This document shows positions 3,244 through 59,439 of a stretch of 64,000 bases of DNA, one piece after another (within the stretch, counting starts at the first letter, position 1; the number at the start of each line of letters is the position of its first letter). This DNA comes from a virus (taxonomy: Duplodnaviria; Caudoviricetes). Both the position numbers and the translations under genes were made by a program. The stretch covers positions 1 to 64,000 of the IMG/VR virus record IMGVR_UViG_2634166419_000001; one strand, given 5' to 3'. The notes below the pieces were generated by a model that ran no database searches, was not told the DNA's origin, and was given only the letters and a program-made list of their open reading frames with translations.

Positions 3244-3569
3244 AGACAATGGAATTTGATAAGGCATTAGATCGTTACTTGACTGAACCACCACAAGAAC
3301 CGCCAATCAGACAGTATTCCTATACCGATAAAGAGATTTATCAAGGCGAAGAATACTATCAAGATGACGGCAATCATTGTTTGCTATTTGAAGAAATTGA
3401 CGCTTTTTTATCAAATAGAAATCTAAAGACAATGGTAGAAATGATTGTTGTACTAGATGATGAACCATACAAACAAGCACGAGAAGTCTTGCTTGAAATC
3501 ATCAAAGACAACTATACCGACGAACAAATTCTTGAATACTTCAACTTTGAAAAGGTGGTAGCAGAATGA
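3240..3569 (+). CDS. Hypothetical phage protein
   Basis: Overlapping start/stop coupling; weak similarity to 41777..42142. Confidence 0.7.
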   Translation: MKTMEFDKALDRYLTEPPQEPPIRQYSYTDKEIYQGEEYYQDDGNHCLLFEEIDAFLSNRNLKTMVEMIVVLDDEPYKQAREVLLEIIKDNYTDEQILEYFNFEKVVAE

Positions 3570-4054
3570 TTACACTAAGAGATTTGAATGAAAGCTATAT
3601 GAACATTATGACAATCTTAGATAACCCAGAAGCAGACCAAGAAGCGTTGATTGCTGCATTGAATGAAATCAATGAAACGGCTGATGAAAAGATTGTCAAC
3701 ATTATCAAGGTCATCAAGGAATATGAAGATAGAAACAAAGCAATCAAAGAAGAAAAAGCACGGTTAGGTCAGCTTGAAACGATTAATAAGAACGCAATCG
3801 AACGCTTGAAAGATTACGCTAAACAATCAATGTTGCTTAGAAATCAGAAGAAGATTGTATCCGACCTATACACAATCACTTTAGCGAACAATCAACCAAA
3901 AGTGAACGTGTTAGACGAAACCAAGATACCGCTTGATTTCTTTGAAGAAGTAAGGGAAATGAAGTTAGATAAGAAAGCGTTGAAAGAATATTTAAAGAAT
4001 AACGAATGTGACTACGCTTATTTAGAAAGTAAACAGTCGTTGAGGATTAAATAG
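3566..4054 (+). CDS. Siphovirus Gp157 family protein
   Basis: Coiled coil with DKKALKEYLK...SLRIK C-terminus. Confidence 0.85.
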   Translation: MITLRDLNESYMNIMTILDNPEADQEALIAALNEINETADEKIVNIIKVIKEYEDRNKAIKEEKARLGQLETINKNAIERLKDYAKQSMLLRNQKKIVSDLYTITLANNQPKVNVLDETKIPLDFFEEVREMKLDKKALKEYLKNNECDYAYLESKQSLRIK

Positions 4055-11507: not shown

Positions 11508-11679
11508 TTGGCATAGAAGAAACAAAAATATACCATGGAGTGCTTTTTACTCTGGCGCTAACGGTGTGAGTAAAATGAAGAATCATGAGTTGAATGTTAC
11601 GCTGAAAAAAGTGCAAGAAATTGCTGATAAATTAGATATTGATGATTATACAATCTTATTTGAAAGGGGTTACGACTGA
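11467..11679 (+). CDS. XRE-like HTH protein
   Basis: NVTLKKVQEIADKLDI; homologue 47565..47777. Confidence 0.75.
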   Translation: MDKDIIKVFWGNVDWHRRNKNIPWSAFYSGANGVSKMKNHELNVTLKKVQEIADKLDIDDYTILFERGYD

Positions 11680-12347
11680 TGCCGACAGCCGAGTATTACC
11701 AGGCGATTAAATTATTAAATGATAAATGCGAAGATAACTGGGTAATTGCTATGGATATGTGCAGCGAAGAAGAAAAGAAATTTATTATCGAATCTATCGG
11801 TGGCGATAAATACGTACAAGACGGATTTAAGGAAATTACCTTGAGAAAATGCGACGATGGTCTTTTAAGACGACATAAGCACATATACAAGCATCATCCA
11901 AAGTATTCGAATATTTTAGTCAGCAATAATGGCCGAATATTTAGAATTGAAGAGAAAGTCAGCGAAAGTCAATTTGAAGTAACCTATACAACTAAACGCT
12001 ACAGTCGTATTTCGTGCAACCATAGCGGAAATCCTACAATATCTTTTTTAGGCGCACCAGTTTTAATCAAAAATATTGTCTATGATACATTTGTTGGTGA
12101 CAGAAAGAAAAATGAAATAATCATAAATATTAATGGCGATAAGCGAGATAATCGCTTGAGTAATTTAAAAATAGAAACGCCATTAGACAGGTTTATGAGT
12201 CACGAGCTATACCCATACCTAGACGAAATTGTGGAAATGCAGAAACGTAATGTAGCATTAAAATTTATAGCCGGTAAATTCGAAGTGACACGAAGTAAGT
12301 TGGTTTGGTTTTTGAGTAATGCTAGAAAGCTAGGAGTGATTGAATGA
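11679..12347 (+). CDS. Degenerate NUMOD4/HNH-like protein with C-terminal HTH-like region
   Basis: VSNNGRI and NINGDKRDNRLSNL without the usual His residues. Confidence 0.6.
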   Translation: MPTAEYYQAIKLLNDKCEDNWVIAMDMCSEEEKKFIIESIGGDKYVQDGFKEITLRKCDDGLLRRHKHIYKHHPKYSNILVSNNGRIFRIEEKVSESQFEVTYTTKRYSRISCNHSGNPTISFLGAPVLIKNIVYDTFVGDRKKNEIIININGDKRDNRLSNLKIETPLDRFMSHELYPYLDEIVEMQKRNVALKFIAGKFEVTRSKLVWFLSNARKLGVIE

Positions 12348-13210: not shown

Positions 13211-13552
13211 ATGAGAGCTGATAGAGTAGGACAACATCGTACAGCTTTTGAGAAAAACCGAAAGCGCATATTAATGACTGAGAACACTTGTGGGATATGT
13301 GGTCAACCGGTCGATAAGAACCTCAAACCACCACATCCATTGAGCCCAGTCATAGACCATATCATTCCGATTAATAAAGGTGGACATCCATCAGATATTA
13401 ATAACTTACAGCTTGCTCATTGGCAGTGCAACAGAGCGAAGTCTGACAAGCTGTTCAATTCAAAGGAAATCAAAACAGAAACAAAAACTAATGTAATAGG
13501 CAATCGAAATCTGCCTCAAAGCATTGATTGGTTAAATTATAGAAGTAAATGA
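13211..13552 (+). CDS. Packaging-associated HNH endonuclease
   Basis: CGIC, DHIIP..GG, NLQLAHWQCNRAK; directly before head genes. Confidence 0.88.
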   Translation: MRADRVGQHRTAFEKNRKRILMTENTCGICGQPVDKNLKPPHPLSPVIDHIIPINKGGHPSDINNLQLAHWQCNRAKSDKLFNSKEIKTETKTNVIGNRNLPQSIDWLNYRSK

Positions 13553-13653: not shown

Positions 13654-14883
13654 ATGCCATATAAAGGTATAGATTATTTAAAAAGAAAGCTGATTTCAAA
13701 GCGTTCTAGGGTTCAGTTGCGTTATAAACAATACGCGATGAAGCATAGTGATTATGAAGTAGGTATCACTATTCCAACTGAAATAAGACAGAGATATAAA
13801 GCTGTGATGGGATGGTGTGCGAAAGGCGTAGATGCCTTAGCTGACCGTTTGATGTTTCGAGAATTTGAGAATGACGATTTTGAAGTAAATGAGATTTTCC
13901 ATGCTAACAATCCAGATATCTTTTTTGACAGCGCAGTGCTTTCAGCTTTGATTGCATCGTGCTGTTTTGTCTATGTATCTAGTGGCGACGATGGTATGCC
14001 AAGATTACAAATCATCGAGGCGAGCGATGCTACTGGAGTTATTGATCCAATTACCGGATTATTAACAGAGGGATACGCTGTCCTTCAAAGAGACGATAAC
14101 GATTTACCAATTTTAGAAGCGTATTTTCTAAAGGAACGTACTTGGTTTTATCCAAAAGACGGCAAGGCTTATAGCATCGAAAATAAAGCAGGCATTCCAT
14201 TGCTAGTGCCAATTATCCATCGTCCTGATGCAGTCCGTCCGTTTGGTCGTTCAAGAATTACGCGTTCTGCGATGTATTATCAAAGATACGCTAAACGAAC
14301 GATGGAACGTGCAGATATTACTGCTGAATTCTATTCATTTCCACAAAAATATGTAGTAGGACTTTCACAAGACGCTGAACCGATGGATACTTGGAAAGCA
14401 ACTGTTTCATCAATGCTGCAATTTACAAAGGATGATGAAGGGGGTAATCCTACTCTTGGTCAATTTAGTACATCAAATATGTCACCTTTTACTGAGCAGC
14501 TTAGAACAGCAGCTGCTGGTTTTGCTGGGGAAATGGGATTAACCTTGGATGATTTGGGGTTTGTGTCAGACAATCCTTCAAGTGTAGAAGCGATTAAAGC
14601 TAGTCATGAGGGGTTGCGTTTAGCCGGTAAGAAAGCACAGAGAAGTCTAGGCTCAGGACTACTTAACGTAGCTTATGTGGCAGTCTGTCTAAGAGATGAG
14701 TTCACATACACTCGGACAAGATTCATGGACACCATTCCTAAATGGGAACCACTATTTGAAGCCGATGCATCTGCTTTAGGTCTTATTGGCGACGCAGCAA
14801 TCAAACTGAATCAAGCTATTCCAGGATTGGTAGATGAAGCGATGATTCGTGATTATACGGGTATGGGTGGTAAAAATGGATAA
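13654..14883 (+). CDS. Portal protein
   Basis: GWCAKGVDALADRL, RPFGRSRI, AEFYSFPQ, NPSSVEAI. Confidence 0.85.
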   Translation: MPYKGIDYLKRKLISKRSRVQLRYKQYAMKHSDYEVGITIPTEIRQRYKAVMGWCAKGVDALADRLMFREFENDDFEVNEIFHANNPDIFFDSAVLSALIASCCFVYVSSGDDGMPRLQIIEASDATGVIDPITGLLTEGYAVLQRDDNDLPILEAYFLKERTWFYPKDGKAYSIENKAGIPLLVPIIHRPDAVRPFGRSRITRSAMYYQRYAKRTMERADITAEFYSFPQKYVVGLSQDAEPMDTWKATVSSMLQFTKDDEGGNPTLGQFSTSNMSPFTEQLRTAAAGFAGEMGLTLDDLGFVSDNPSSVEAIKASHEGLRLAGKKAQRSLGSGLLNVAYVAVCLRDEFTYTRTRFMDTIPKWEPLFEADASALGLIGDAAIKLNQAIPGLVDEAMIRDYTGMGGKNG

Positions 14884-15592
14884 AGATATTGTACCTGAAT
14901 TACTTGAGAAGATAAAAAAAGAATTCGAAAAAGAAAAAGTTGCAAACAAAAATATCAATCAATTATTAAAGTTGCTAGATGAGAACAGTGCTACATATTT
15001 AGAAGCTAATAAATACGCAATTGAAATTGGTGAATTGCTTTCTAAAATTCTAAATAGGCATATTACTGTAGAAATACTACCTGATGGTAAGATGTATTTT
15101 AATATTGCTGATCGCGTATTAAACGAAACACTTAAAAATAATTACGAATTAATTTCTGATTATGCAGAAAATGTACAATATCAATTGAATAAAAAGGCGA
15201 ATTTAGGAATTAAATCAAAACGTCCATCTATCAATCAAGATAGAATCGATGGAATTGTAAATAGAATATCTACCGAGGAGTCGTTTGATGATATTAAGTG
15301 GATTCTAGGCGATCCGATTGTGAATTTCAGTCAGAGTATTGTTGATGAATTCATTAAATCAAACGTTGAATTTCACAATGAAATAGGATTAGAACCAGAA
15401 ATCAAAAGAATTGCAGTTGGAAAAGCGTGCAAATGGTGTAGAAGCCTAGAGGGAAGTTATAGTTATCCTGATAATGTACCAAAAGATGTGTATCATCGAC
15501 ACGAGAATTGTCGCTGTATGGTAGATTATCACCCGAAAGATAGTAGAGGAAAACAAAACGTCTGGAACAAGAGTTGGACAAAAAATATTTAG
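14876..15592 (+). CDS. Minor capsid/head morphogenesis protein
   Basis: ACKWC and HENCRC motifs; follows portal. Confidence 0.7.
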   Translation: MDKDIVPELLEKIKKEFEKEKVANKNINQLLKLLDENSATYLEANKYAIEIGELLSKILNRHITVEILPDGKMYFNIADRVLNETLKNNYELISDYAENVQYQLNKKANLGIKSKRPSINQDRIDGIVNRISTEESFDDIKWILGDPIVNFSQSIVDEFIKSNVEFHNEIGLEPEIKRIAVGKACKWCRSLEGSYSYPDNVPKDVYHRHENCRCMVDYHPKDSRGKQNVWNKSWTKNI

Positions 15593-15718
15593 TATTCAAC
15601 TATTATTATCTCACAACGCGTAAAATAAAGGTGGTGGTCAAGATGAGTGATGAATGGGATGAGTTAGAAGAATTGGAAAATATTGGACTCATCTAAAAAG
15701 ATTGAAAGGGGCGATAAA

Positions 15719-17125
15719 ATGACCAACAAACGAGTTGGCAATCAAACTCCTACTCAATCGGTAATAATACCATATCAGAAAACTTTAAGCGATGAAGCTG
15801 TTAAGTATTATGAGCGCACAGGCTTGAAATGTTACGATTGGCAGAAAAATTTGCTAGATAGCATTATGGCTATTGATGAAGAAGGCTTGTGGGTACATCA
15901 GAAATTCGGATATGCTATACCGCGTCGAAACGGTAAGACAGAAGTTATCTACATTAAAGAAATATGGGCTTTAGAACAAGGCCTTAACGTCTTACACACT
16001 GCGCACCGAATCAGCACTTCTCATGCGTCTTTTGAAAAGGTCAAGCGTTATCTTGAAAAGTCTGGGTACGTTGACGGTACGGATTTCAATTCGATTAAAG
16101 CTAAAGGTCAAGAACGTATTGAATTATATGAATCAGGTGGAGTCATACAATTCCGTACACGTACATCTAGTGGCGGTCTTGGTGAAGGGTTTGACCTTTT
16201 AGTAATCGATGAAGCGCAAGAATACACGATGGAACAGGAATCAGCTCTTAAATACACAGTTACCGATTCGGACAATCCACAAACAATCATGTGTGGAACG
16301 CCACCAACTCCTGTATCAAGTGGTACGGTATTTACAAGTTATCGTGATACAGTGCTTGCTGGAGGGGCTAAGTATTCTGGTTGGGCTGAATGGTCTGTTG
16401 ATAGCCAGAAAGATATTCATGATGTGGATGCTTGGTATAATTCCAATCCATCTTTGGGTTATCATTTGTCTGAGCGTAAAATTGAAGCTGAGTTGGGCGA
16501 TGATAAACTGGACCACAATATCCAACGTTTAGGATACTGGCCAAAGTATAATCAGAAGTCGGCTATCACTAAAGGCGAATGGGATACTTTAAAAGTCAAT
16601 GAATTGCCTACGTTTAATGGGCCGCTCTTCATTGGCATTAAATACGGCAACGATAATACCAACGTGGCGATGAGTGTAGCAGTCAGAACAGATGATAATC
16701 GCATTTTTATCGAGACATTAGACTGTCAATCAATTAGAAATGGCAACCAGTGGATTATTAATTTTATCAAAAATGCCGATGTGGCTAAGGTAGTAGTCGA
16801 TGGTGCGAATGGTCAAAAAATTTTAGCTGATGAATTTAAGGATTTTGGTCTTAAAAAACCGATTATGCCAACAGTTAAAGAAATCATCGTGGCCAACTCA
16901 TTATGGAGTCAAGCGATTTACCAAAAAGAATTGTGTCATAATAATCAGCCATCGTTGGCTAAAGTGGCTACCAACTGTGAGAAGCGCAATATTGGCTCGA
17001 ATGGTGGATTTGGTTATCGGTCACAGTTTGATGATATGGATATTAGTTTAATGGATAGTGCACTTTTAGCACATTGGGCTTGCTATACAACCAAGCCAAA
17101 GAAAAAACAAAAAATCAGGTATTAG
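15719..17125 (+). CDS. terL: Terminase large subunit
   Basis: PRRNGKT Walker A, LLVIDEAQ Walker B, GTPP. Confidence 0.92.
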   Translation: MTNKRVGNQTPTQSVIIPYQKTLSDEAVKYYERTGLKCYDWQKNLLDSIMAIDEEGLWVHQKFGYAIPRRNGKTEVIYIKEIWALEQGLNVLHTAHRISTSHASFEKVKRYLEKSGYVDGTDFNSIKAKGQERIELYESGGVIQFRTRTSSGGLGEGFDLLVIDEAQEYTMEQESALKYTVTDSDNPQTIMCGTPPTPVSSGTVFTSYRDTVLAGGAKYSGWAEWSVDSQKDIHDVDAWYNSNPSLGYHLSERKIEAELGDDKLDHNIQRLGYWPKYNQKSAITKGEWDTLKVNELPTFNGPLFIGIKYGNDNTNVAMSVAVRTDDNRIFIETLDCQSIRNGNQWIINFIKNADVAKVVVDGANGQKILADEFKDFGLKKPIMPTVKEIIVANSLWSQAIYQKELCHNNQPSLAKVATNCEKRNIGSNGGFGYRSQFDDMDISLMDSALLAHWACYTTKPKKKQKIRY

Positions 17126-21038: not shown

Positions 21039-21416
21039 ATGCTCAAAGTAGACGAAGATGCGATTATTTGCGACTTAGCTGAGACATACAATATCTACGA
21101 TTATAGACAGCTACCTGTATCAAAGGTGGCTGTTTTTGTTTGTGGTTTAAGGTCAGATTCGCGAATCATGATGAAGATTAGCGATTCTAAATTGCCTTTA
21201 GACACGTTGTTACTTGCTGGAGTAGCTGACAGATTAAGTATCATGCTTTGGCAAAATACGAAAGATGGTCAACGCGGAAAAAATCAACCTGTATCTATTG
21301 TTGATCAACTAACTAAGCAGCAAATCGAACGCGAAGAAGTATCATTTGAGTCTGGCAAGGATTTTGAAGCAGAAAAAGCAAGAATTTTAAGAGGGGGTGT
21401 GGTGAATGGCGACTGA
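21039..21416 (+). CDS. Tail chaperone extension (gpT-like), reached by -1 frameshift
   Basis: -1 frame open from 21015 through 21416. Confidence 0.75.
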   Translation: MLKVDEDAIICDLAETYNIYDYRQLPVSKVAVFVCGLRSDSRIMMKISDSKLPLDTLLLAGVADRLSIMLWQNTKDGQRGKNQPVSIVDQLTKQQIEREEVSFESGKDFEAEKARILRGGVVNGD

Positions 21417-21936
21417 ATTAGGTCAAGCGTACGTCCAAATTATGCCATCAGCGAAAGGTATTAGTGGTATGATTCAGAAGCAAATAGAGCCTGAATCAAA
21501 ATCGGCTGGTGCTAGTGCAGGAATTAGTTTGGGTAAATCAATGATTACCGCAGTTACAGCTGCTATTGCGGCTGCTGGGATTGGAAAGATGTTTGCTGCA
21601 TCAATTTCTGAAGGAGCGGCACTTCAACAATCTTTGGGTGGTGTTGAGACGCTATTTAAGAGTAGCGCTGATACGGTCAAAAACTACGCTAACCAAGCAT
21701 ACAGAACAGCCGGAGTGTCGGCTAATAAGTACATGGAAAATGTTACTTCCTTCTCGGCTTCCTTAATTTCTTCGCTTGGTGGCGATACTGCTAAGGCTGC
21801 AGAGTTAGCCAATACGGCTATGGTTGATATGTCGGATAACGCAAACAAGATGGGTACCGATATGGAATCCATCACACAAACTTACCAATCTTTAGCGCGT
21901 GGAAATTATGCCATGTTAGATAACTTGAAGCTCGGT
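21406..21936 (+). CDS. Tape measure protein, exon 1 (177 codons)
   Basis: MATELGQAYVQI...MLDNLKLG; ends in T at the group I 5' splice site. Confidence 0.9.
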
Positions 21937-22846
21937 AGAAAATCCATAGCCGAGTATAAACCTAGTGAAAACGGTGAAACTCTAAGTTTAGCGGCTTAGA
22001 CAATACCGTGCTAAGCAAGAATTAGATACTTTGCTTGAATTTTACGTATTAGTTTGATAAAATAAAACATATAAATACGTGGAGGGTTGCAAAGTGTGGA
22101 AGAAAATTGGTAGAAATCCAAATTATTCAATTAATGAAAACGGCGAAGTTAGAAATGATAAAACAAATCATATAAAAAGTTGTTTTGTAAATCCTAAAAA
22201 TAACTATCTCATGGTTGACCTTTACGAAAATAATCAACCAAAGAAAGTCCCTATTCATAGATTGATTGCAGAGGCTTTTATTCCAAATCCAGAGAATAAA
22301 GCGACTGTAGATCATATAGATGGAAACAGACAAAACAACGATATTTCTAATTTGAGATGGGCAACTTACTCAGAGAACAATTCTCGGTTTGGAACCGTTG
22401 GAGTAAGAAGCGAAGCGGTTGTTGTTACTAAGTATAAAGAAGAACGGAAAAAACGAGGCGGTGGACATTTAGCGTGGTTAGATGTCATCGAAAAACTTGA
22501 GTTCGAGAGTATATCGGCAACTGCAGAATATTTCGGTTGTACTATTTCTAACGTTTCTTTAATGTTAGAAAAAGGTACAATCGGGCAGCGCGGAAAAACG
22601 AGAGGATATCAATTTTCTTATAAGAACGGTAAACGTTCGACTTATAATTCTTGAAAGTGTAACGACTATCGAAACAGAGAAAACACCTGAAAGGGTGTTT
22701 TTTTTAATGGAGTAGAGTAGGATTCAAGCGAATTCGAAGCGCTAGGATGCAGAAATGCATAAGAGATAGTCTACTCTCTATGGTGACATAGAGCAGCTCT
22801 AAAAGAGCGGTCATGAGTTAGCGACTTGTGGCGAATGTGTACCAAG
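21937..22846 (+). ncRNA. Group I self-splicing intron (IA-like), 910 nt
   Basis: P1 CTCGGT/GCCGAG with U-G, P10 CCATA/TATGG, P3 CCTAG/CTAGG, P4 ACGGT/ACCGT, R AACGACTAT, S AAGAGATAGTCT, terminal G; removal restores LKLG-YGGTK in frame. Confidence 0.93.
22094..22654 (+). CDS. Intron-encoded HNH homing endonuclease (NUMOD4-like N-terminus)
   Basis: YSINENGEV, IHRLIAEAFIPNP, VDHIDGNRQNN..NLRW; in P6 loop; GTG 8 nt after GGAGG. Confidence 0.9.
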   Translation: MWKKIGRNPNYSINENGEVRNDKTNHIKSCFVNPKNNYLMVDLYENNQPKKVPIHRLIAEAFIPNPENKATVDHIDGNRQNNDISNLRWATYSENNSRFGTVGVRSEAVVVTKYKEERKKRGGGHLAWLDVIEKLEFESISATAEYFGCTISNVSLMLEKGTIGQRGKTRGYQFSYKNGKRSTYNS

Positions 22847-24676
22847 TATGGTGGTACGAAATCTGAACTGGAACGCTTGATGCGAGATGCAGAAAAACTG
22901 ACTGGTGAGCATTACACAGTTGGGGATTTTGCCGATACCGTCAAGGCGATTCATGCAGTGCAAGAGAGCATGGGCATTACAGGCACAACAGCCAAAGAAG
23001 CAGCAACAACTTTAAGTGGTTCACTAGCAAGTATGAAGGCAGCGTTTAGTGATGTTTTGGGTAAATTATCGTTAGGTCAAGATATTGTTCCGTCTTTAAA
23101 TGCGTTGGCTGAAACAACTGCTACATTCTTATTTGGCAATTTCATTCCGATGGTTGGTAACATTCTAAAAGGATTACCAACTGCAATCACCACGTTCATT
23201 TCTGCAGCAATCCCTCAAATGACCGCAGGATTACAATCGGTGTTTTCTGATATAGGTGTAGATATTGATTTTTCGGGGTTAACTTCTAAATTTTCAGGAA
23301 TTATAACTGCTATTCAGCCGATAATCAACGGACTAAAAACAGCTTTTGGACAGCTTCCAAGCCTATTTAATTCAGTAGTAAGTTCTGTTACACCGGTCAT
23401 TAATACATTAGTCAGTGGCTTTAGTCGATTAGATTTTAGTGGTATTCAGACATTGATTTCTTCAATTATTCCGGCTATTCAAACTGGATTTAGCACAATG
23501 ATGTCTATTGTCGGTCCAGCAATCGATAGTGTGGTCAATTCGTTTGTATCAATGTGGAATGCAGCACAACCACTTATTTCTGTGATTAGCGGTGCTTTGA
23601 TGCCTGCTTTTCAAATCTTAGGTTCATTTTTAGGCGGTGTGATTAAAGGTGCATTAATGGGTATATCGATGGCTTTTGATGCGGTAAAAATTGCAATCGA
23701 ATTTTTAACACCAATTATTACAATTGTCGTAAATGCATTTAGTACATTATCGCCAATTTTGAGTACGATTGCTCAATGGGTAGGCACGGTAATTGGATTA
23801 TTTGGTAATTTGGGTACTGCTGGTCAAGGATTGAGCAGCTTCATTCAGTCAGCGTGGTCAAACATTCAAACAGCTATTTCTACTGCAGCAAGTGTAATCG
23901 GAACAGTTATTGAATATATTAAACTAGCTTTTTCGGGAGTTGGTAATGCTGCTCAAGTTGTCAAAAATATCATATCGATTGTTTGGATGGCTATTGGCGA
24001 TGTCATTCGAACAGTGGCATCAGCAATCAGAAGTGCGATGTCAGCTGCAGGAAGCGCGTTTAGTGGCTTTGGAAGTGTCGTATCAGCTATATCAGGTACG
24101 ATTAAAGGCGTTATAAACGGTGTAAAAAATACTTTTAATAGTTTAAAAAATATTAACTTAGTTGGTGCAGGTAGCGCAATCATGAATGGATTTTTAGGCG
24201 GTTTGCAAGCTGGTTTTAATAAAGTAAAAGGATTTGTTGGTGGTATTGCAAGCTGGATTAAAGAACATAAAGGTCCAATCAGCTATGACCGTAAAATCTT
24301 GATTCCGGCCGGTAACGCAATTATGAAAGGTCTGAATGAAGGGTTAAGCACACAATTTAAAGATGTGCAATCAAATGTTTTAGGCATGGCTGATACACTG
24401 GCTAATACATTTAATCCTGATTTGAATGCAGAATTGAGTGCAGTTGGCGATGTGCAATTAGCTGTATCGTCAAAAGGTTTATATGATAGTTCTAGCCAAC
24501 AATCAAACAAAGAATCATATTTAATGGACTTATTGGTTAAAATGGCTAATCGTCCAGTAATTATCGAAAATAAAATGGATGGTAAAAAGATTGGTCAGAT
24601 GGTAGCTGAACCGGTGACAGATGAACAAAATAAACGACAAGCAATATTAAATGCTGTGTATGGATTGGGGTGGTAA
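22847..24676 (+). CDS. Tape measure protein, exon 2 (spliced product 786 aa)
   Basis: YGGTKSELERL, amphipathic repeats, HKGPISYD motif. Confidence 0.9.
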   Translation, partial: YGGTKSELERLMRDAEKLTGEHYTVGDFADTVKAIHAVQESMGITGTTAKEAATTLSGSLASMKAAFSDVLGKLSLGQDIVPSLNALAETTATFLFGNFIPMVGNILKGLPTAITTFISAAIPQMTAGLQSVFSDIGVDIDFSGLTSKFSGIITAIQPIINGLKTAFGQLPSLFNSVVSSVTPVINTLVSGFSRLDFSGIQTLISSIIPAIQTGFSTMMSIVGPAIDSVVNSFVSMWNAAQPLISVISGALMPAFQILGSFLGGVIKGALMGISMAFDAVKIAIEFLTPIITIVVNAFSTLSPILSTIAQWVGTVIGLFGNLGTAGQGLSSFIQSAWSNIQTAISTAASVIGTVIEYIKLAFSGVGNAAQVVKNIISIVWMAIGDVIRTVASAIRSAMSAAGSAFSGFGSVVSAISGTIKGVINGVKNTFNSLKNINLVGAGSAIMNGFLGGLQAGFNKVKGFVGGIASWIKEHKGPISYDRKILIPAGNAIMKGLNEGLSTQFKDVQSNVLGMADTLANTFNPDLNAELSAVGDVQLAVSSKGLYDSSSQQSNKESYLMDLLVKMANRPVIIENKMDGKKIGQMVAEPVTDEQNKRQAILNAVYGLGW

Positions 24677-32693: not shown

Positions 32694-32731
32694 ACGTTGA
32701 CCACGCGATTAATCAGTGATATATTTAAAAC

Positions 32732-33158: not shown

Positions 33159-34094
33159 ATGGAAGGCATTTTACCTTTATGGAAAGAACGTGGCTTAACG
33201 AGTCATGACTGTGTATTTAAGTTACGCAAAATTTTACATATGAAAAAGATTGGTCATAGCGGGACTTTGGATCCTGATGTTGATGGCATTTTACCAATCT
33301 GTATCGGACGAGCGACTAAGGTTGTTGAATTTTTGACGGATTCTGGAAAAGTATATGAAGGCGAAATTACTCTAGGCTATTCGACGACGACAGAGGATGC
33401 GAGTGGGGAGATTGTTGATTTAACACCCGTTGAAAAAGTTCTGTCAAATGAATTGATTGATAGCACAATGCAGACTTTTATTGGTGAGATTACGCAAATT
33501 CCACCCATGTATTCAGCAGTTAGAGTGAATGGTAAGCGATTATATGAATATGCACGTAATGGCGAAACTGTTGAAAGACCTGTCAGAAAAGCTCAAATTT
33601 ATCGCTTTCAAAGAATCACGGAACCGGTCTTTGATGCGCAAAAACACACGCTATCTTGGCGCTTTCAGGTAGCTTGTGGCAAAGGTACTTATGTTCGTAC
33701 GCTAGCTGTTGATTTAGGGAAAAAATTAGGCTTTGCTGCTCATATGTCCGATTTAACACGGATAAAAAGTGGTGGTTTTACCAAAGAGCAAGCCGTAACT
33801 TTAGACCAAGTAGCTCAAGCGATGGCAAACAATGAGGTAGAAAAGCTGCTTTTACCCATTGAGTATGGGGTTCGTGATTTTCCACGCATTGATATTTCTG
33901 AAGAGTTGACCAAAAAAGTGATGAATGGGATGCGGATTCCGTATTGGCAATTTGGTTTTAATACTTGTCCAGATCGTCCAATCGCCTTATATTATAACAA
34001 TCAGGTATTAAGTATCTATGAAGTAAGTCCAAGTGACAAAAATAAGCTTAAACCACAGAAAATGTTAAGAACGCAATTAGAAATGAAGGAATAA
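33159..34094 (+). CDS. truB: tRNA pseudouridine(55) synthase
   Basis: GHSGTLDP, QIPPMYSA, CGKGTYVRTL. Confidence 0.97.
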   Translation: MEGILPLWKERGLTSHDCVFKLRKILHMKKIGHSGTLDPDVDGILPICIGRATKVVEFLTDSGKVYEGEITLGYSTTTEDASGEIVDLTPVEKVLSNELIDSTMQTFIGEITQIPPMYSAVRVNGKRLYEYARNGETVERPVRKAQIYRFQRITEPVFDAQKHTLSWRFQVACGKGTYVRTLAVDLGKKLGFAAHMSDLTRIKSGGFTKEQAVTLDQVAQAMANNEVEKLLLPIEYGVRDFPRIDISEELTKKVMNGMRIPYWQFGFNTCPDRPIALYYNNQVLSIYEVSPSDKNKLKPQKMLRTQLEMKE

Positions 34095-34099
34095 TAGTT

Positions 34100-35053
34100 A
34101 TGAATATCATTGAATTAAGACATCCGTTTGAAAAAGAACGCGTAATCAAGGAAGAGGTTGTTTTGGTGCTAGGCTTTTTTGACGGGGTACATCGCGGACA
34201 TCAAGCAGTGATTGAACAAGGGAAAAAACTAGCAAAAGAAAAGAATCTGAAACTAGCACTGATGACTTTTAACCAACACCCATCCATTGTTTTTCAAAAA
34301 ATGTCTAAAGAAACGATGACCTATTTAACGAGCATGAATCAAAAAGCGCAATTGTTTGAAAAAGCTGGGGTGGATTTATTATATGTGGTTGATTTTACTT
34401 CAGCCTTTGCAAAATTAACGCCCGAAGAATTTATCGAACAATATATCATTGGGTTACATGCTAAAGTAGTTGTGGCTGGATTTGACTATACATTTGGCTA
34501 TCAAGGAAAAGCAACAATGACAGATTTAGCGCAATTAGCGAACCAACGCTTTGAAGTAATCGAAGTGCCTGAATTAAGCGAACATGGACAAAAGGTTAGT
34601 TCGACCGCCATTCGCCAAGCTTTGGCAAAAGGCGATATGCAAGCAGTCAATGAATTATTAGGCTATCCTTATACGATAGAAGGAACAGTGATGCATGGCG
34701 ATGCGCGTGGCCGAACACTGGGATTTCCTACAGCGAATATTCGTTTTGCCCCAACGACGCGCTTACCAATCGAAGGCGTGTATGTTTGTGAATTTAAAGT
34801 GGGGAATACCTGGCATCAAGCAATGGGATCAATTGGCCATAATGATACGTTTGGAGAAGGCCGTAAATTAACAGTAGAGGTCTATATTTTAGATTTTCAT
34901 CAAGAAATTTATGGAGAATTTGTGGAAGTGCGTTGGTTACATCTACTCCGTGAACAAATTAAATTTGATGGAGCTGAGCGTTTGATTCAACAACTCCATC
35001 AAGATGAGGTAGATACAAGAGCATATTTTGCGACCTTAGCGAAGGAATCATGA
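34100..35053 (+). CDS. ribF: Bifunctional riboflavin kinase/FAD synthetase
   Basis: GFFDGVHRGH, VSSTAIR, GRTLGFPTAN; follows truB. Confidence 0.96.
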   Translation: MNIIELRHPFEKERVIKEEVVLVLGFFDGVHRGHQAVIEQGKKLAKEKNLKLALMTFNQHPSIVFQKMSKETMTYLTSMNQKAQLFEKAGVDLLYVVDFTSAFAKLTPEEFIEQYIIGLHAKVVVAGFDYTFGYQGKATMTDLAQLANQRFEVIEVPELSEHGQKVSSTAIRQALAKGDMQAVNELLGYPYTIEGTVMHGDARGRTLGFPTANIRFAPTTRLPIEGVYVCEFKVGNTWHQAMGSIGHNDTFGEGRKLTVEVYILDFHQEIYGEFVEVRWLHLLREQIKFDGAERLIQQLHQDEVDTRAYFATLAKES

Positions 35054-35245
35054 TTTTTGAACATTAATTAGCTGAAATTCTTCGCTATCAGGCACTTTTA
35101 TGATGAGAAATCCGTCTGGCAAAGTCGCAGGGGAAACGTCTTTGATATTTTTTCCGCTTGCAATCTGTGCCATACGGATTAATTCTTTTTCATCTTTGCT
35201 GCTGGCTACCAGATTTCCGAGATTAAAAAGGGCATTTTCTTCCAT
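35048..35245 (-). CDS. Small hypothetical protein
   Basis: SD AAGGAGG before ATG; TG-N-TATAAT upstream. Confidence 0.55.
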   Translation of the reverse strand: MEENALFNLGNLVASSKDEKELIRMAQIASGKNIKDVSPATLPDGFLIIKVPDSEEFQLINVQKS

Positions 35246-35295
35246 GACAATCACCTCCTTGTGTATATTATATCAAAAATGAGAAAGAAAGGGGG

Positions 35296-36444
35296 ATGGA
35301 AATGTTAGAGGCGGTTTCAAGTTATATTCATATACCTTTTTGTGAGCATATCTGTTATTATTGCGATTTTAATAAAGTCTTTTATGAAGGACAACCCGTA
35401 GATGAGTACCTAGAAAAACTGGATTTGGAAATGAAATTATGGATAGAAAAATATCCGCAACAACAAACACCAACCATCTACATTGGGGGAGGGACGCCAA
35501 CTTCTTTAAATGATGCTCAGTTACGTTCCTTATTAACAAGCGTAACCAAATATTTTGATGTGACGACAACCAAAGAATTTACTGTTGAAGCGAACCCAGG
35601 AGATTTAACAGAAAATAAACTTCATATTATGCAAGAATTTGGGGTCAATCGGTTATCAATGGGTGTGCAGACTTTTAATGACCGCTTGCTAAAGAAAATT
35701 GGTCGGAAGCATACGGTTAAAGATGTGGATGATACACTGAACTTTTTAGCGAAGAATCATTTTGATAATGTGAGTATTGATTTGATTTATGCTTTACCAG
35801 GTCAGACGCAGCAAGATTTTGATGAGACCTTAAAGCAAGCACTTAGTTATGACTTGCCACATTACTCGATGTATTCTTTGATTTTGGAAAATAAGACGAT
35901 GTTTATGAATTGGGTGCGCAAAGGTCGATTAGAATTACCTAGCCAGGAAGAAGAGGCGGGAATGTTTGCCTTGGCGATGGATGTGATGTGTCAAAAAGGT
36001 TATGAGCAGTATGAAGTTTCAAACTTTGCTAAACCAGGCTTTCAGTCACAGCACAACCTTGTTTACTGGAATAATGAGTACTACTTTGGCTTCGGCGCTG
36101 GGGCTAGTGGATATGTCGACAAAGTAAGATATAAAAATCATGGCCCGATTCAACATTATTTAAATCCTTTACGAAACCAACAATTGCCCATTTTCTCTGA
36201 AGAAACCTTAGATCAAAAAGCACGTATGGAAGAGGAGATGTTTTTAGGGCTCCGTAAAGCACAAGGCGTCTCCATTGCGCACTTTAATGAGAAATTTGGT
36301 GTTGATTTCCATCAAATATACGGTTCTGTTGTTGGAAATTATGTATCTAAAGGATTACTCAATCAAACGGATAACGGCTATATTCAACTAACCAAAAAAG
36401 GACTTTTTCTAGGGAATGAAGTATTTGAGGGATTCTTACTTTAG
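35296..36444 (+). CDS. hemW: Radical SAM heme chaperone (HemN-like)
   Basis: YIHIPFC..ICYYCDF, GGGTP, YEVSN, HNLVYW. Confidence 0.95.
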   Translation: MEMLEAVSSYIHIPFCEHICYYCDFNKVFYEGQPVDEYLEKLDLEMKLWIEKYPQQQTPTIYIGGGTPTSLNDAQLRSLLTSVTKYFDVTTTKEFTVEANPGDLTENKLHIMQEFGVNRLSMGVQTFNDRLLKKIGRKHTVKDVDDTLNFLAKNHFDNVSIDLIYALPGQTQQDFDETLKQALSYDLPHYSMYSLILENKTMFMNWVRKGRLELPSQEEEAGMFALAMDVMCQKGYEQYEVSNFAKPGFQSQHNLVYWNNEYYFGFGAGASGYVDKVRYKNHGPIQHYLNPLRNQQLPIFSEETLDQKARMEEEMFLGLRKAQGVSIAHFNEKFGVDFHQIYGSVVGNYVSKGLLNQTDNGYIQLTKKGLFLGNEVFEGFLL

Positions 36445-36827: not shown

Positions 36828-37997
36828 TCATTGACTGCCATTTTGAATGCCATTGACAAAATCGACGAACTTATCCAAAGTGCCGACTTCGTATTCTTTA
36901 GATAAGTGACCATACGTGTCCATAGTCACGGTAATGGATCCGTGGCGCAGACGAGTTTGCACCTCCTTAAGGTTAGCACCTGCCTCGATTAAAAAACTCG
37001 CGTGCGTGTGCCTGGTTGCGTGGTTGCCATAAAAAGGCACGCCCGCGTTTTTGGTTGCTCTTCTGAGTTGATAATAAACATCAGAGGAAAATACCCAGTC
37101 GCCCTCAAGTTTGCTAAAAATAGGCGGCTCGCCTGTTAAGCCAATTGCTAAACGGGCCTTTTTCTTATACGCTCGCCACGTTTTTAAAATCCTTAATGTT
37201 TGCTCATCAACGGGTAACACTGCAACACTAGCCTTTGTTTTAGGTTTGCCAACAGTCAGCTTACTATCAACAAGCTTGAGCGTTTTGTCAATGTTTAAGG
37301 TTTTAGCCTTAAAATCTATATCGGACCATTCGAGCGCGAGAGCCTCATTGATGCGCAAGCCAGTGAAGAAAAGTAAACGAAACAGCGCGTACATGAAATA
37401 ACCATCATAATCAGATTGGTTATCTTTTAGATACGCCATAAGTGTATTAAAATCTTGTTTAGCGTACACTTTAACGCGTTTGTGAGCATCTCCTTTAGGC
37501 TTAATAACAGACTCCATTGGGTTAATACTTATCAAGTCCATGGTAATGGCGTATTTAAAGATACGACTAGCCTTGCATGTCAGTGCTCCGAGTGCTGAGT
37601 ATTGTAAATACCAATCATTCACCGCCTGTTGGCATTCCACCCTTGTGATGTCCTTAATAGGTCGGTCACCAAATTTAGGGTATAGATAGTTTTTTAAGAT
37701 GTTTTTGGTTCCTTGATACGTTACATCCTGCACGGTTAACTTGTAGCTGGTTAACCAAAGCTCGGCCACCTCTTTAAAAGTTAAGCTATCTATGCTATCA
37801 TTTTCTTGTGAGGCCCACGTATCTGCATCAAATTCAGCGAGTAACTGACTGCAGGCGCGTTGGGCTTGTTTTTTTGTCTCAAAGCCACGCCTTGTGGTCT
37901 TGATACGCTTTCCTGTTTTCGGGTCAGTACCAAGATAAGCGGAAAATTGCCACGCTTCTTGGCCGTTCTTTTTGGTGTATTTTTTAAAATTTGCCAT
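36828..37997 (-). CDS. int: Tyrosine integrase
   Basis: Arm-binding N-terminus, TGLRINE, HATRHTHAS, RLRH..TMDTYGH. Confidence 0.95.
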   Translation of the reverse strand: MANFKKYTKKNGQEAWQFSAYLGTDPKTGKRIKTTRRGFETKKQAQRACSQLLAEFDADTWASQENDSIDSLTFKEVAELWLTSYKLTVQDVTYQGTKNILKNYLYPKFGDRPIKDITRVECQQAVNDWYLQYSALGALTCKASRIFKYAITMDLISINPMESVIKPKGDAHKRVKVYAKQDFNTLMAYLKDNQSDYDGYFMYALFRLLFFTGLRINEALALEWSDIDFKAKTLNIDKTLKLVDSKLTVGKPKTKASVAVLPVDEQTLRILKTWRAYKKKARLAIGLTGEPPIFSKLEGDWVFSSDVYYQLRRATKNAGVPFYGNHATRHTHASFLIEAGANLKEVQTRLRHGSITVTMDTYGHLSKEYEVGTLDKFVDFVNGIQNGSQ

Positions 37998-57954: not shown

Positions 57955-58135
57955 AAAAAAGAGCGAGGCAAAATCCGAGCCTACTTACAGCAAGTTAGAG
58001 ATTTTGCAAGCGACAGACGCCTTTACGCGCATCGAACGAGATTTTTTATCTGTCTACCTATCAGACGGAGAGGTCTACTCGATTACCGACGCGCGCGAGG
58101 TACTAAATAAAAAATTAAAGGAGGCTATTAAATAA
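57944..58135 (+). CDS. Small pre-sheath protein
   Basis: SD AAGGAGG; coupled to sheath gene. Confidence 0.65.
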   Translation: MATKKKSEAKSEPTYSKLEILQATDAFTRIERDFLSVYLSDGEVYSITDAREVLNKKLKEAIK

Positions 58136-59439
58136 TGGCTGGAGGTATTTGGACAGCGCAGGACAAGGTACGTCCAGGCGCTTATATCAATGTACAAGGC
58201 AATGGTAAGGTCGGCACTAGCTCTGCAGTTAGCGGCATCATGACCATCCCATTACCTTTAAAATTTGGACCAGTTGGCAAGGTCCTAGAGTTAGATGCAA
58301 CAAGTGATTTAACAATTTTAGGTAACACGTTGAGCGATCCTGAGTTACTGTTAATACGTGAGGCATTTAAACGCGCAAGCAAAGTCTTGCTTTACCGTGT
58401 AGGTGGTGGGACAAAAGCGACTAAGACAGAGGGCACTTTAACTGTTACTGCACAATATCCAGGCACACGCGGAAATGCTATCTCAGTGGTGGTTACTGCT
58501 AATGTTAACCCCGAGTCGACTTTTAATGTGGTGACTTACCTTGACGGAGTAGCAGTAGACACGCAAACAGTCAAGAAAGTGGAAGAGTTACAAGCTAATA
58601 AGTTGGTTACGTTTAGCGGTACTGGAGCAGCCGCTAAAGCAACCATCGCTTTAGAGGGCGGTACCGATACGGAAGCGCAAGCCAACGATTACGCGAAATA
58701 TTTTGAAGCTATCCAAGTGTACGAATTTAACACGATGGCGCTACCTATCTCTGATGATGGAATTAAGGCAACCGCAGCAGCCTTTATCAAACGATTACGT
58801 GATGAAGAGGGCTACAAAGTGCAGTTAGTGGTGGCTAACCATGATGCTAACCACGAGGCAGTGATTAACGTATCTAATGGGGTTGTTTTAGCAGACGGAA
58901 CCAAGTTGACAGCGGAACAGTGTACTGCTTGGGTGGCTGGAGCAACTGCAAGTGCTGGTGTGGCTGGAAGTTTAACGTATGCCACTTACGACGGTGCAGT
59001 TGACGCGAACCCTCGCATGATTAATAGCGACATTATTGACGCGTTAAAAGCTGGTAAGTTTATTTTTACCGAAAAACGCGGAACCGCAGTCGTCGAACAA
59101 GACATTAACAGCTTGCATACCTTTACCAAAGAAAAAGGTAAGGACTTTAGTAAGAACCGTGTCTTACGTGTATTAGACGACATCGCGAACAGCTCTAAAA
59201 AGACCTTTGAAGATAATTACATCGGCAAGGTTAACAATAACACAGACGGTCGTGAGTTATTTAAAGCAGACCGCATCGGCTACTTTGATCGTTTAATGGG
59301 TATGGGCGCAATCGAAAACTTTGTGCCGGATGACATTACCATCGCGCAAGGCGATAGCAAAGACAGCGTATTGCTAGATGTTAAAGTCCAACCAGTAGAC
59401 GCAATGGAAAAATTATACATGACGGTAGTCGTCGAGTAA
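58135..59439 (+). CDS. Tail sheath protein (XkdK-like)
   Basis: MAGGIW..QDKVRPGAYIN, NRVLRVLD, PVDAMEKLY. Confidence 0.92.
   Translation: MAGGIWTAQDKVRPGAYINVQGNGKVGTSSAVSGIMTIPLPLKFGPVGKVLELDATSDLTILGNTLSDPELLLIREAFKRASKVLLYRVGGGTKATKTEGTLTVTAQYPGTRGNAISVVVTANVNPESTFNVVTYLDGVAVDTQTVKKVEELQANKLVTFSGTGAAAKATIALEGGTDTEAQANDYAKYFEAIQVYEFNTMALPISDDGIKATAAAFIKRLRDEEGYKVQLVVANHDANHEAVINVSNGVVLADGTKLTAEQCTAWVAGATASAGVAGSLTYATYDGAVDANPRMINSDIIDALKAGKFIFTEKRGTAVVEQDINSLHTFTKEKGKDFSKNRVLRVLDDIANSSKKTFEDNYIGKVNNNTDGRELFKADRIGYFDRLMGMGAIENFVPDDITIAQGDSKDSVLLDVKVQPVDAMEKLYMTVVVE

Follow-up and report, generated by a model that had tools for sequence, protein, structure and literature searches.

A siphovirus-type prophage with a probable mobile r1t-family group I intron in its tape-measure gene

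Introduction

Lactococcus phage r1t reportedly harbors a group I intron, which is said to go back to the report of the phage genome by van Sinderen et al. in 1996. A passage of a further paper names the group I intron of r1t with the same attribution (van Sinderen 1996, as cited in PMC4177764). In prophages of the Bacillus cereus group, excerpts of a comparative survey describe introns of subgroups IA1 and IA2, designated TMP-IVS1, -IVS2, and -IVS3a/b, at three sites in genes for the tape-measure protein (TMP) (Tourasse and Kolstø 2008, PMC2504315). The TMP gene is called "frequently interrupted" in passages of a study of Vibrio phage ICP1, whose own TMP is spliced from four exons according to RNA-seq and RT-PCR (Barth et al. 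2023, PMC10448857). The lysin gene in phages of Streptococcus thermophilus contains a group I intron that, as relayed in part of a second source, occurs at one site in both full-length and ORF-deleted forms (Foley et al. 2000, via PMC3952083), and Cluster J mycobacteriophages are reported to have spliced introns in genes for the capsid and the tail (PMC3706429). Introns in TMP genes are not mentioned in the pertinent passages of PMC5601072, PMC6195288, PMC4299906, PMC7838156, PMC3653736, PMC4118853, and PMC3888941.

Here we describe an insert in a 64,000-nt stretch of viral DNA (hereafter the window), which covers positions 1 to 64,000 of the IMG/VR record IMGVR_UViG_2634166419_000001 and is part of a 73.8-kb provirus record. 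The insert at 21937-22846 is very probably a mobile r1t-family group I intron, with an IA-type core that includes P7.1 and P7.2. It is located in the TMP gene of a prophage of siphovirus type, for which Enterococcus cecorum is the nearest sequenced host. The original prediction for this locus, made from the DNA letters and a list of open reading frames, had presented the tail ruler as a less familiar kind of intron host; a group I intron in a TMP gene stands, but the novelty was overstated, given the r1t family and the TMP introns already in print (passages of PMC2504315 and PMC10448857).

The Interrupted Tape-Measure Gene

The insert measures 910 nt, from A21937 to G22846 on the plus strand, and divides two in-frame halves of a TMP gene. 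Exon 1 (21406-21936, plus strand; 177 codons), delimited by the ORF list, a PHROG search, and tblastn, ends in ...LKLG, its last six nucleotides (CTCGGT) being the exon strand of P1, and lies within an ORF of 197 aa (21406-21999). Exon 2 (22847-24676, plus strand; 609 codons plus stop), delimited by the same means, starts with TATGG, encoding YGGT..., and is in frame with an ORF of 616 aa (22826-24676). Position 21936 is a codon boundary, following codon 177, and splicing would give 177 + 609 = 786 codons across ...LKLG/YGGT..., while the unspliced frame runs into a stop at 21997-21999 and yields 197 aa. The original prediction had given the 910 nt of the insert, the 786 aa of the spliced product, and the 197 aa of the unspliced one, and all three figures proved correct when re-read from the DNA and the ORF list.

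Both halves resemble tape-measure proteins and occupy successive parts of the same profiles. In the PHROG search, exon 1 matched the TMP profile phrog_6900 (E 1.8e-75), and exon 2 matched the TMP profile phrog_58 (E 1e-63). Exon 1 covers positions 289-467 and exon 2 positions 473-1050 of phrog_58; the two matches abut exactly in phrog_991 (251-485 and 486-803) and in phrog_1204 (162-325 and 326-520). The gene lies where a TMP gene is expected, between the genes of the tail chaperones and that of the distal tail protein; encoded near it are the major tail protein, a DUF5361 protein, Dit, and a tail fibre protein. The two halves make up one tape-measure gene.

The element that carries the insert encodes a repressor, an anti-repressor, replication proteins, a portal, a terminase, capsid and connector proteins, a major tail protein, Dit, tail-fibre proteins, a holin, and an endolysin, and from this gene content the prophage, with full modules for head, tail, and lysis around the TMP gene, looks complete apart from the split gene. 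Its terminase large-subunit-like gene (15683-17125) follows the portal and minor head genes, and an HNH gene (13211-13552) precedes the portal; the order is the same in phage Javan263. A minor head ORF of 247 aa (14849-15592) matches only positions 1-235 of PHROG profiles that are 399-497 long and is without the C-terminal part seen in its relatives. The window carries two prophages. The siphovirus-type one with the insert ends near 32700. Genes of the host lie next (33159-36444), namely truB, ribF, and a radical SAM gene resembling hemN, and beyond them (36828-64000) are an integrase gene on the minus strand (36828-37997) and the second prophage. The latter includes a tail sheath gene (58135-59439) and its own uninterrupted TMP gene from 60593.

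Alleles that are free of the insert define the junction to the base. When each exon was searched by tblastn against 50,697 phage records, 35 records were common to both exon tables among the matches listed; in 29 of these 35 the exon 1 and exon 2 matches abut with zero bases between them. Javan263 exemplifies this arrangement, its matches meeting at 23973/23974 and its 787-aa protein reading uninterrupted through ...NLKLGYGGTKSE.... The remaining six records, among the matches listed, place 275-928 nt between the two exon matches and come from MissG1, C41431, r1t (two records), proPhi7, and 38502. When one genome of each prokaryote species was scanned, 34 loci came up, 20 of them with both exon ends, and in 19 of the 20 the ends abut at the insertion site. 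Among them is Enterococcus cecorum DSM 20682, the nearest genome allele, with 95% identity in the exon 2 protein and 100% identity over the last 70 residues of exon 1. The original prediction had staked its reading on a contiguous ...LKLGYGGT... in homologous TMPs, which is present, for example, in Javan263, and had proposed a search for intronless alleles, which are now at hand from E. cecorum DSM 20682, 18 other genome loci, and Javan263. The TMP homologues of phages SM1, IPP45, IPP67, IPP68, OlisA2, and 315.3 (from Streptococcus mitis, S. pneumoniae, and S. pyogenes) are annotated as PblA or as "putative human platelet-binding protein".

Ribozyme Fold and Covariation

The insert folds as a group I intron on the plus strand, with a conserved core from P3 to P9 that contains the P3/P7 pseudoknot. 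An internal guide occupies 21944-21954: 21949-21954 (GCCGAG) pairs with the end of exon 1 (21931-21936) to form P1, with a U·G at the splice site, and 21944-21948 (CCATA) can pair with the start of exon 2 (22847-22851, TATGG) to form P10. The 5' part further contributes the first strands of P3 (21961-21965/22742-22746) and P6a (22016-22023/22646-22653; CAAGAATT with AATTCTTG) and both strands of P4 (21971-21975/22005-22009). The 3' ribozyme half (22664-22846) comprises, in order, P7, P7.1, P7.2, the 3' strand of P3, P8, the 3' strand of P7, P9, P9.1, P9.2, and the terminal G. Its helices are P7 (22664-22669/22766-22771), P7.1 (22683-22688/22693-22698, with a GAAA loop), P7.2 (22720-22725/22730-22735), P8 (22747-22751/22756-22760), P9 (22776-22782/22787-22793), P9.1 (22796-22799/22805-22808), and P9.2 (22810-22818/22824-22832). 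These positions bear out the P1 of the original prediction, with its U-G at the splice site, as well as its P3, P4, P6a, P7, P8, and P9 stems and its terminal G.

Group I introns of subgroup IA have two additional helices, P7.1 and P7.2, in the stretch that leads from the 5' strand of P7 to the 3' strand of P3. Because the modelled fold contains both helices at this place, the insert is assigned to subgroup IA (IA2-like). It has no P2 in the window, unlike many IA2 introns.

Comparative support for this fold was sought in an alignment of the window with 38 distinct homologues (39 sequences), drawn from 44 distinct sequences after four exact duplicates had been dropped. Left out were L011 (a different intron), L038 and L042 (compound inserts), L086 (a near-duplicate of L085), and L097 (a short flank). 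The helices P1, P10, P3-P9, P7.1, P7.2, P9.1, and P9.2 were mapped from the window onto this alignment. Across the 39 homologues, 94.8% of 2853 cells were paired, as against 30.5-43.0% when partners were slid by 1-3 columns, a control in which the zero-slide row is favored, both alignment and structure being anchored on the window. Changes on both sides of a pair were found in 45 of 76 pairs, and the observed values were reached by none of 500 shuffles, a comparison that related sequences are able to win even without structure.

The individual helices behave as follows in the 39 homologues. All 39 sequences retain the U·G at the splice site, and the terminal G22846 is an invariant column. At position -4 of the exon, which is the silent third position of a codon, the base covaries with the guide (CG in 21 sequences, GC in 16, and AU in two). 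Pairing amounts to 99.5% in P3, 99.5% in P4, 100% in P6, 93.6-100% in P8, 100% in P9, 98.7% in P9.1, and 88.0% in P9.2; the two subgroup-specific helices are 91.1% (P7.1) and 100% (P7.2) paired, with five of six pairs compensatory in each. Compensatory pairs are present in P3, P4, P6a, P7.1, P7.2, P8, P9, P9.1, and P9.2. P7 is 100% paired but invariant, and is uninformative on covariation. P10, which the original prediction had drawn as CCATA with TATGG, does exist as a pairing in the window, but only 77.6% of its cells are paired across the 39 homologues and compensatory change is absent from it; it is plausible for the window's own subgroup only. The compensatory changes extend over the homologues and include the exon-guide pairing, which shows that the fold is still under selection.

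The r1t Intron Family

The insert has relatives among phage introns at the same place. A low-stringency blastn search matched the intron in eight records, at 72% DNA identity and over 98% of its length; these records belong to Lactococcus phages r1t, proPhi7, 28201, 50901, and 62501 and to Streptococcus phage Javan520. In Streptococcus phages MissG1, IPP23, 33888, and Javan271, the two ribozyme arms were matched but not the middle. In r1t, the match sits between ORF40 and ORF42, both now annotated as TMP, and ORF41 is an HNH endonuclease (RefSeq annotation). The window's intron shares with this family the homology of the ribozyme and the insertion site.

A 16-nt scan of IMG/VR, followed by local BLAST, extended the comparison to at least 92 loci, of which at least 38 carry an insert at the same TMP site. 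About half of these inserts are 270-311 nt long and ORF-less, about half are 883-928 nt long and ORF-bearing, and a few are intermediate or compound. As many as 31 of the 92 listed loci proved to be chance 16-nt matches with zero similarity to the intron and were discarded. A further group of about 16 listed loci matches the 3' ribozyme core only, without TMP exons. Loci with a match to this core but none to the TMP exon ends are L016, L019, L020, L025, L033, L037, L041, L045, L061, L066, L075, L084, and L087, some of which also match part of the HNH gene; these may be related introns in other genes or in more distant TMP genes.

The conserved TMP stretch of about 120 nt that receives the intron is also occupied in relatives by unrelated introns, up to two further ones. 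Javan271 (L008, about 1-587) and L042 (289-1503) have, upstream of the r1t-type intron, a group I-like intron that carries an HNH gene, and the roughly 22 nt left between the two form a micro-exon; in Lactococcus phage 38502 (L011, 564-1449) the upstream intron is the only one, and L038 has an ORF-less intron about 100 nt upstream. The boundaries in all four are putative.

A scan of the whole window against Rfam at the gathering threshold gave zero matches, the gathering score of the group I model RF00028 being 50 bits. A permissive scan did return RF00028 at 22542-22793, with 26.7 bits (E 1.6e-4), and we attribute the low score to the P6 insert of about 630 nt, which holds the ORF and is not spanned by the model. 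The ORF-less relatives are informative on this point. The 275-nt version in MissG1 is annotated as ncRNA and scores 69.4 bits, and the ORF-less L017 (1185-1485) scores 52.4 bits. The arms of L017 are 97.9% and 98.5% identical to those of the window, the latter figure being that of the 3' half, and the end of exon 1 is the same in both. The endonuclease gene is cleanly deleted in L017, with the two ends of the P6 insert seen in the window still in place around the deletion. On its own, L017 folds into most of the helices described above (z = -4.82).

These scores bear on a different reading of the locus, in which the insert would be a mere free-standing HNH gene that splits the TMP gene, with no catalytic RNA and with helices that pair by coincidence. 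Phages commonly have free-standing nuclease genes close to or within essential genes, according to passages of one study (PMC10448857), and the window itself has no Rfam match at the gathering threshold, which speaks for such a reading. It is hard to reconcile with the ORF-less versions of about 270-311 nt at the very same site, since 11 of 16 of them reach the RF00028 gathering score, with the covariation that supports 13 helices outside the ORF, or with the insert ends, which leave an exact in-frame junction; we regard it as scarcely credible. On the Rfam model that the original prediction named as a check, the window falls short (26.7 vs 50 bits), which we put down to the ORF in P6 and do not count against the group I intron that we favor; its ORF-less homologues largely pass.

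The Intron-Borne Endonuclease Gene

The P6 loop contains an HNH homing-endonuclease gene on the plus strand (22094-22654), which is absent from the original prediction. The mechanical ORF extends from 22079 to 22654 and encodes 191 aa; we place the start at the GTG at 22094 rather than at 22079, because the ATG of the relatives aligns there, 8 nt after a GGAGG (22081-22085), which gives a protein of 186 aa. The stop codon overlaps the 3' strand of P6a. The ORF matches Pfam HNH_3 (E 7.1e-14; 51.6 bits against a cut-off of 24.8) and phrog_59 (E 1.6e-40), and its residues 7-182 align with residues 3-171 of the 174 in PDB entry 1U3E, "HNH homing endonuclease" (I-HmuI), at E 2e-14. I-HmuI derives from Bacillus phage SPO1 and nicks one strand. 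The protein is identical to r1t ORF41 at 142 of 186 positions (76%), with no gaps, and an open frame of 164-205 aa is kept in all 21 of the ORF-bearing relatives. A second ORF of the HNH_3 type (11679-12347, 222 aa) is free-standing between the replication and packaging genes; its Pfam match (E 4.8e-5) is just below the cut-off.

Upstream of the HNH gene, within the P6 loop, a consensus scan located a promoter-like site on the plus strand (22035-22063), which reads TTGAAT-17 nt-TAAAAT and has a TG before the second hexamer. The same scan found promoter-like sites in the region in numbers no higher than chance. Of the 21 ORF-bearing relatives, however, 16 have kept the pattern TTGnnn-16/18-TAnnnT and 17 have kept an extended -10. 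Directly past the HNH stop, P7.1 forms a terminator-like hairpin on the plus strand (22683-22705) with a run of seven T after the stem; the scan lists this hairpin on the minus strand only. Conservation of the T run across the family exceeds 90%. As modelled, this hairpin and its T run may act as an intrinsic terminator, either ending the endonuclease transcript or attenuating read-through into the TMP gene. With an extended -10 of its own in most relatives and a hairpin followed by a U-run, the HNH gene may be transcribed independently. One could go further and propose that this transcription is independent of the late genes and possibly active in the lysogen, such that the enzyme would nick the intronless TMP sites of incoming phages, combining a homing drive with the exclusion of competitors and making the stretch of about 120 nt a contested hot spot; we consider this extension rather unlikely.

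Splicing and Mobility

The family resemblance suggests how the intron would be removed and spread. In the late transcript, the guide would pair with the six bases at the end of the exon to give a U·G at the cut site, and an external guanosine would attack the 5' splice site. G22846 would then dock, and ligation of the exons would create a single 786-codon TMP frame across ...LKLG/YGGT...; without splicing, translation would end after 197 residues. By analogy with I-HmuI, the HNH enzyme would nick or cut intronless alleles at the same conserved site, and repair would spread the intron by homing. From its sequence, the intron is apparently intact. Catalysis, homing, and independent transcription of the HNH gene are properties that we infer from the family, as we infer the splicing of the TMP transcript and the dependence of tail assembly on it.

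Public sequencing runs were consulted for traces of either form. Sixteen runs were listed, each with under half of the sampled words, and four of them (X6, X9, X1, and X13) were examined as contigs. In X6, an RNA library, one contig of 1494 nt joins 21924 to 22847 with 12 other letters between them, at about 90% identity. We rejected this contig as spliced RNA: the letters at its junction equal those of the intronless Javan263 allele, and it is better read as an intronless relative. X13, a run of unknown type, holds intron-bearing contigs together with loose ends in which 22847 follows immediately on sequence resembling exon 1, which suggests mixed alleles; its depths sum over organisms.

It might be argued that the ribozyme is a decayed, non-splicing relic, and that the TMP is either lost, as in a defective prophage, or made as two polypeptides, namely a 197-aa N-terminal one and a C-terminal one started at an internal codon of exon 2. 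Splicing was not observed in the contigs of the four runs examined, and an in-frame ATG is available 11 codons into exon 2. Databases annotate the TMP halves as separate genes: as the original prediction expected of automated annotation, the genes of r1t, proPhi7, MissG1, IPP23, C41431, 38502, and Javan520 are all entered as separate pieces. Some carriers may indeed be decaying prophages, given that exon 2 is out of frame in Javan520. Against a relic stand the pairing of every helix in the window, a core that is 98% identical to an ORF-less relative passing Rfam, and the compensatory changes across 39 homologues, those between exon and guide included; moreover, the mechanical TTG start at 22826 has no Shine-Dalgarno-like sequence upstream. 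We hold a relic to be very unlikely and retain the reading of a splicing-competent intron as by far the more probable one. In Javan520 itself (L004, a prophage of Streptococcus pyogenes MGAS8232), exon 2 matches lie in two frames at 3407-4013, the region is annotated as three "minor tail protein" ORFs, and the intron-bearing TMP gene appears frameshifted.

Comparison With Known Introns

The analysis confirms the original observation and supports its interpretation. The intron adds a member to the r1t family, specifically one from the Enterococcus/Streptococcus lineage, in a kind of host gene that has already been described, and it opens no new question. Its practical consequences concern annotation, where the two TMP fragments and the HNH gene that they enclose should be treated as a single spliced gene together with a homing gene carried by the intron, and the prediction of tail length, for which about 786 residues should be used rather than 197 or 616. 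The side-by-side occurrence of intronless, ORF-less, and ORF-bearing alleles makes the site well suited to the study of the cycle of intron gain, endonuclease loss, and intron loss.

With I-HmuI (PDB 1U3E), the endonuclease shares similarity over the full length, including the D-H...N...N stretch of the HNH motif, whereas the host gene and the target differ, I-HmuI belonging to an intron of the SPO1 DNA polymerase gene. The lysin intron of S. thermophilus phages likewise coexists with an ORF-deleted form, comparable to L017 here, but interrupts a different host gene.

Among TMP introns, those of Vibrio phage ICP1 resemble the present one in that the middle intron usually carries an endonuclease gene of the HNH-3 type (passages of PMC10448857). 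In contrast, ICP1 infects a Gram-negative host and divides its TMP gene into four exons by three introns, and splicing is experimental there and inferred here; the likeness is one of description (passages of PMC10448857). The introns of the Bacillus cereus group are likewise hosted by prophage TMP genes, occur with and without complete endonuclease genes, lie in conserved target stretches, and have P1 and guide adapted to the site (excerpts of PMC2504315). They differ in TMP family and in hosts, and in occupying three sites as opposed to the one intron here, and they too are likened by description (excerpts of PMC2504315).

The r1t intron is the closest of the systems compared. It shares with the window's intron the point of insertion in the homologous TMP gene, 72% identity over 98% of the length, a P6 loop that likewise holds the ORF, and the same set of helices. 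The two differ in that the nearest allele of the window is found in Enterococcus cecorum and in related streptococcal phages, and in that members of the r1t subgroup do not form P10 in the way proposed for the window. A guide base and its exon partner have changed together in a compensatory manner, and P3, P7.2, P8, and P9 likewise differ by compensatory pairs.
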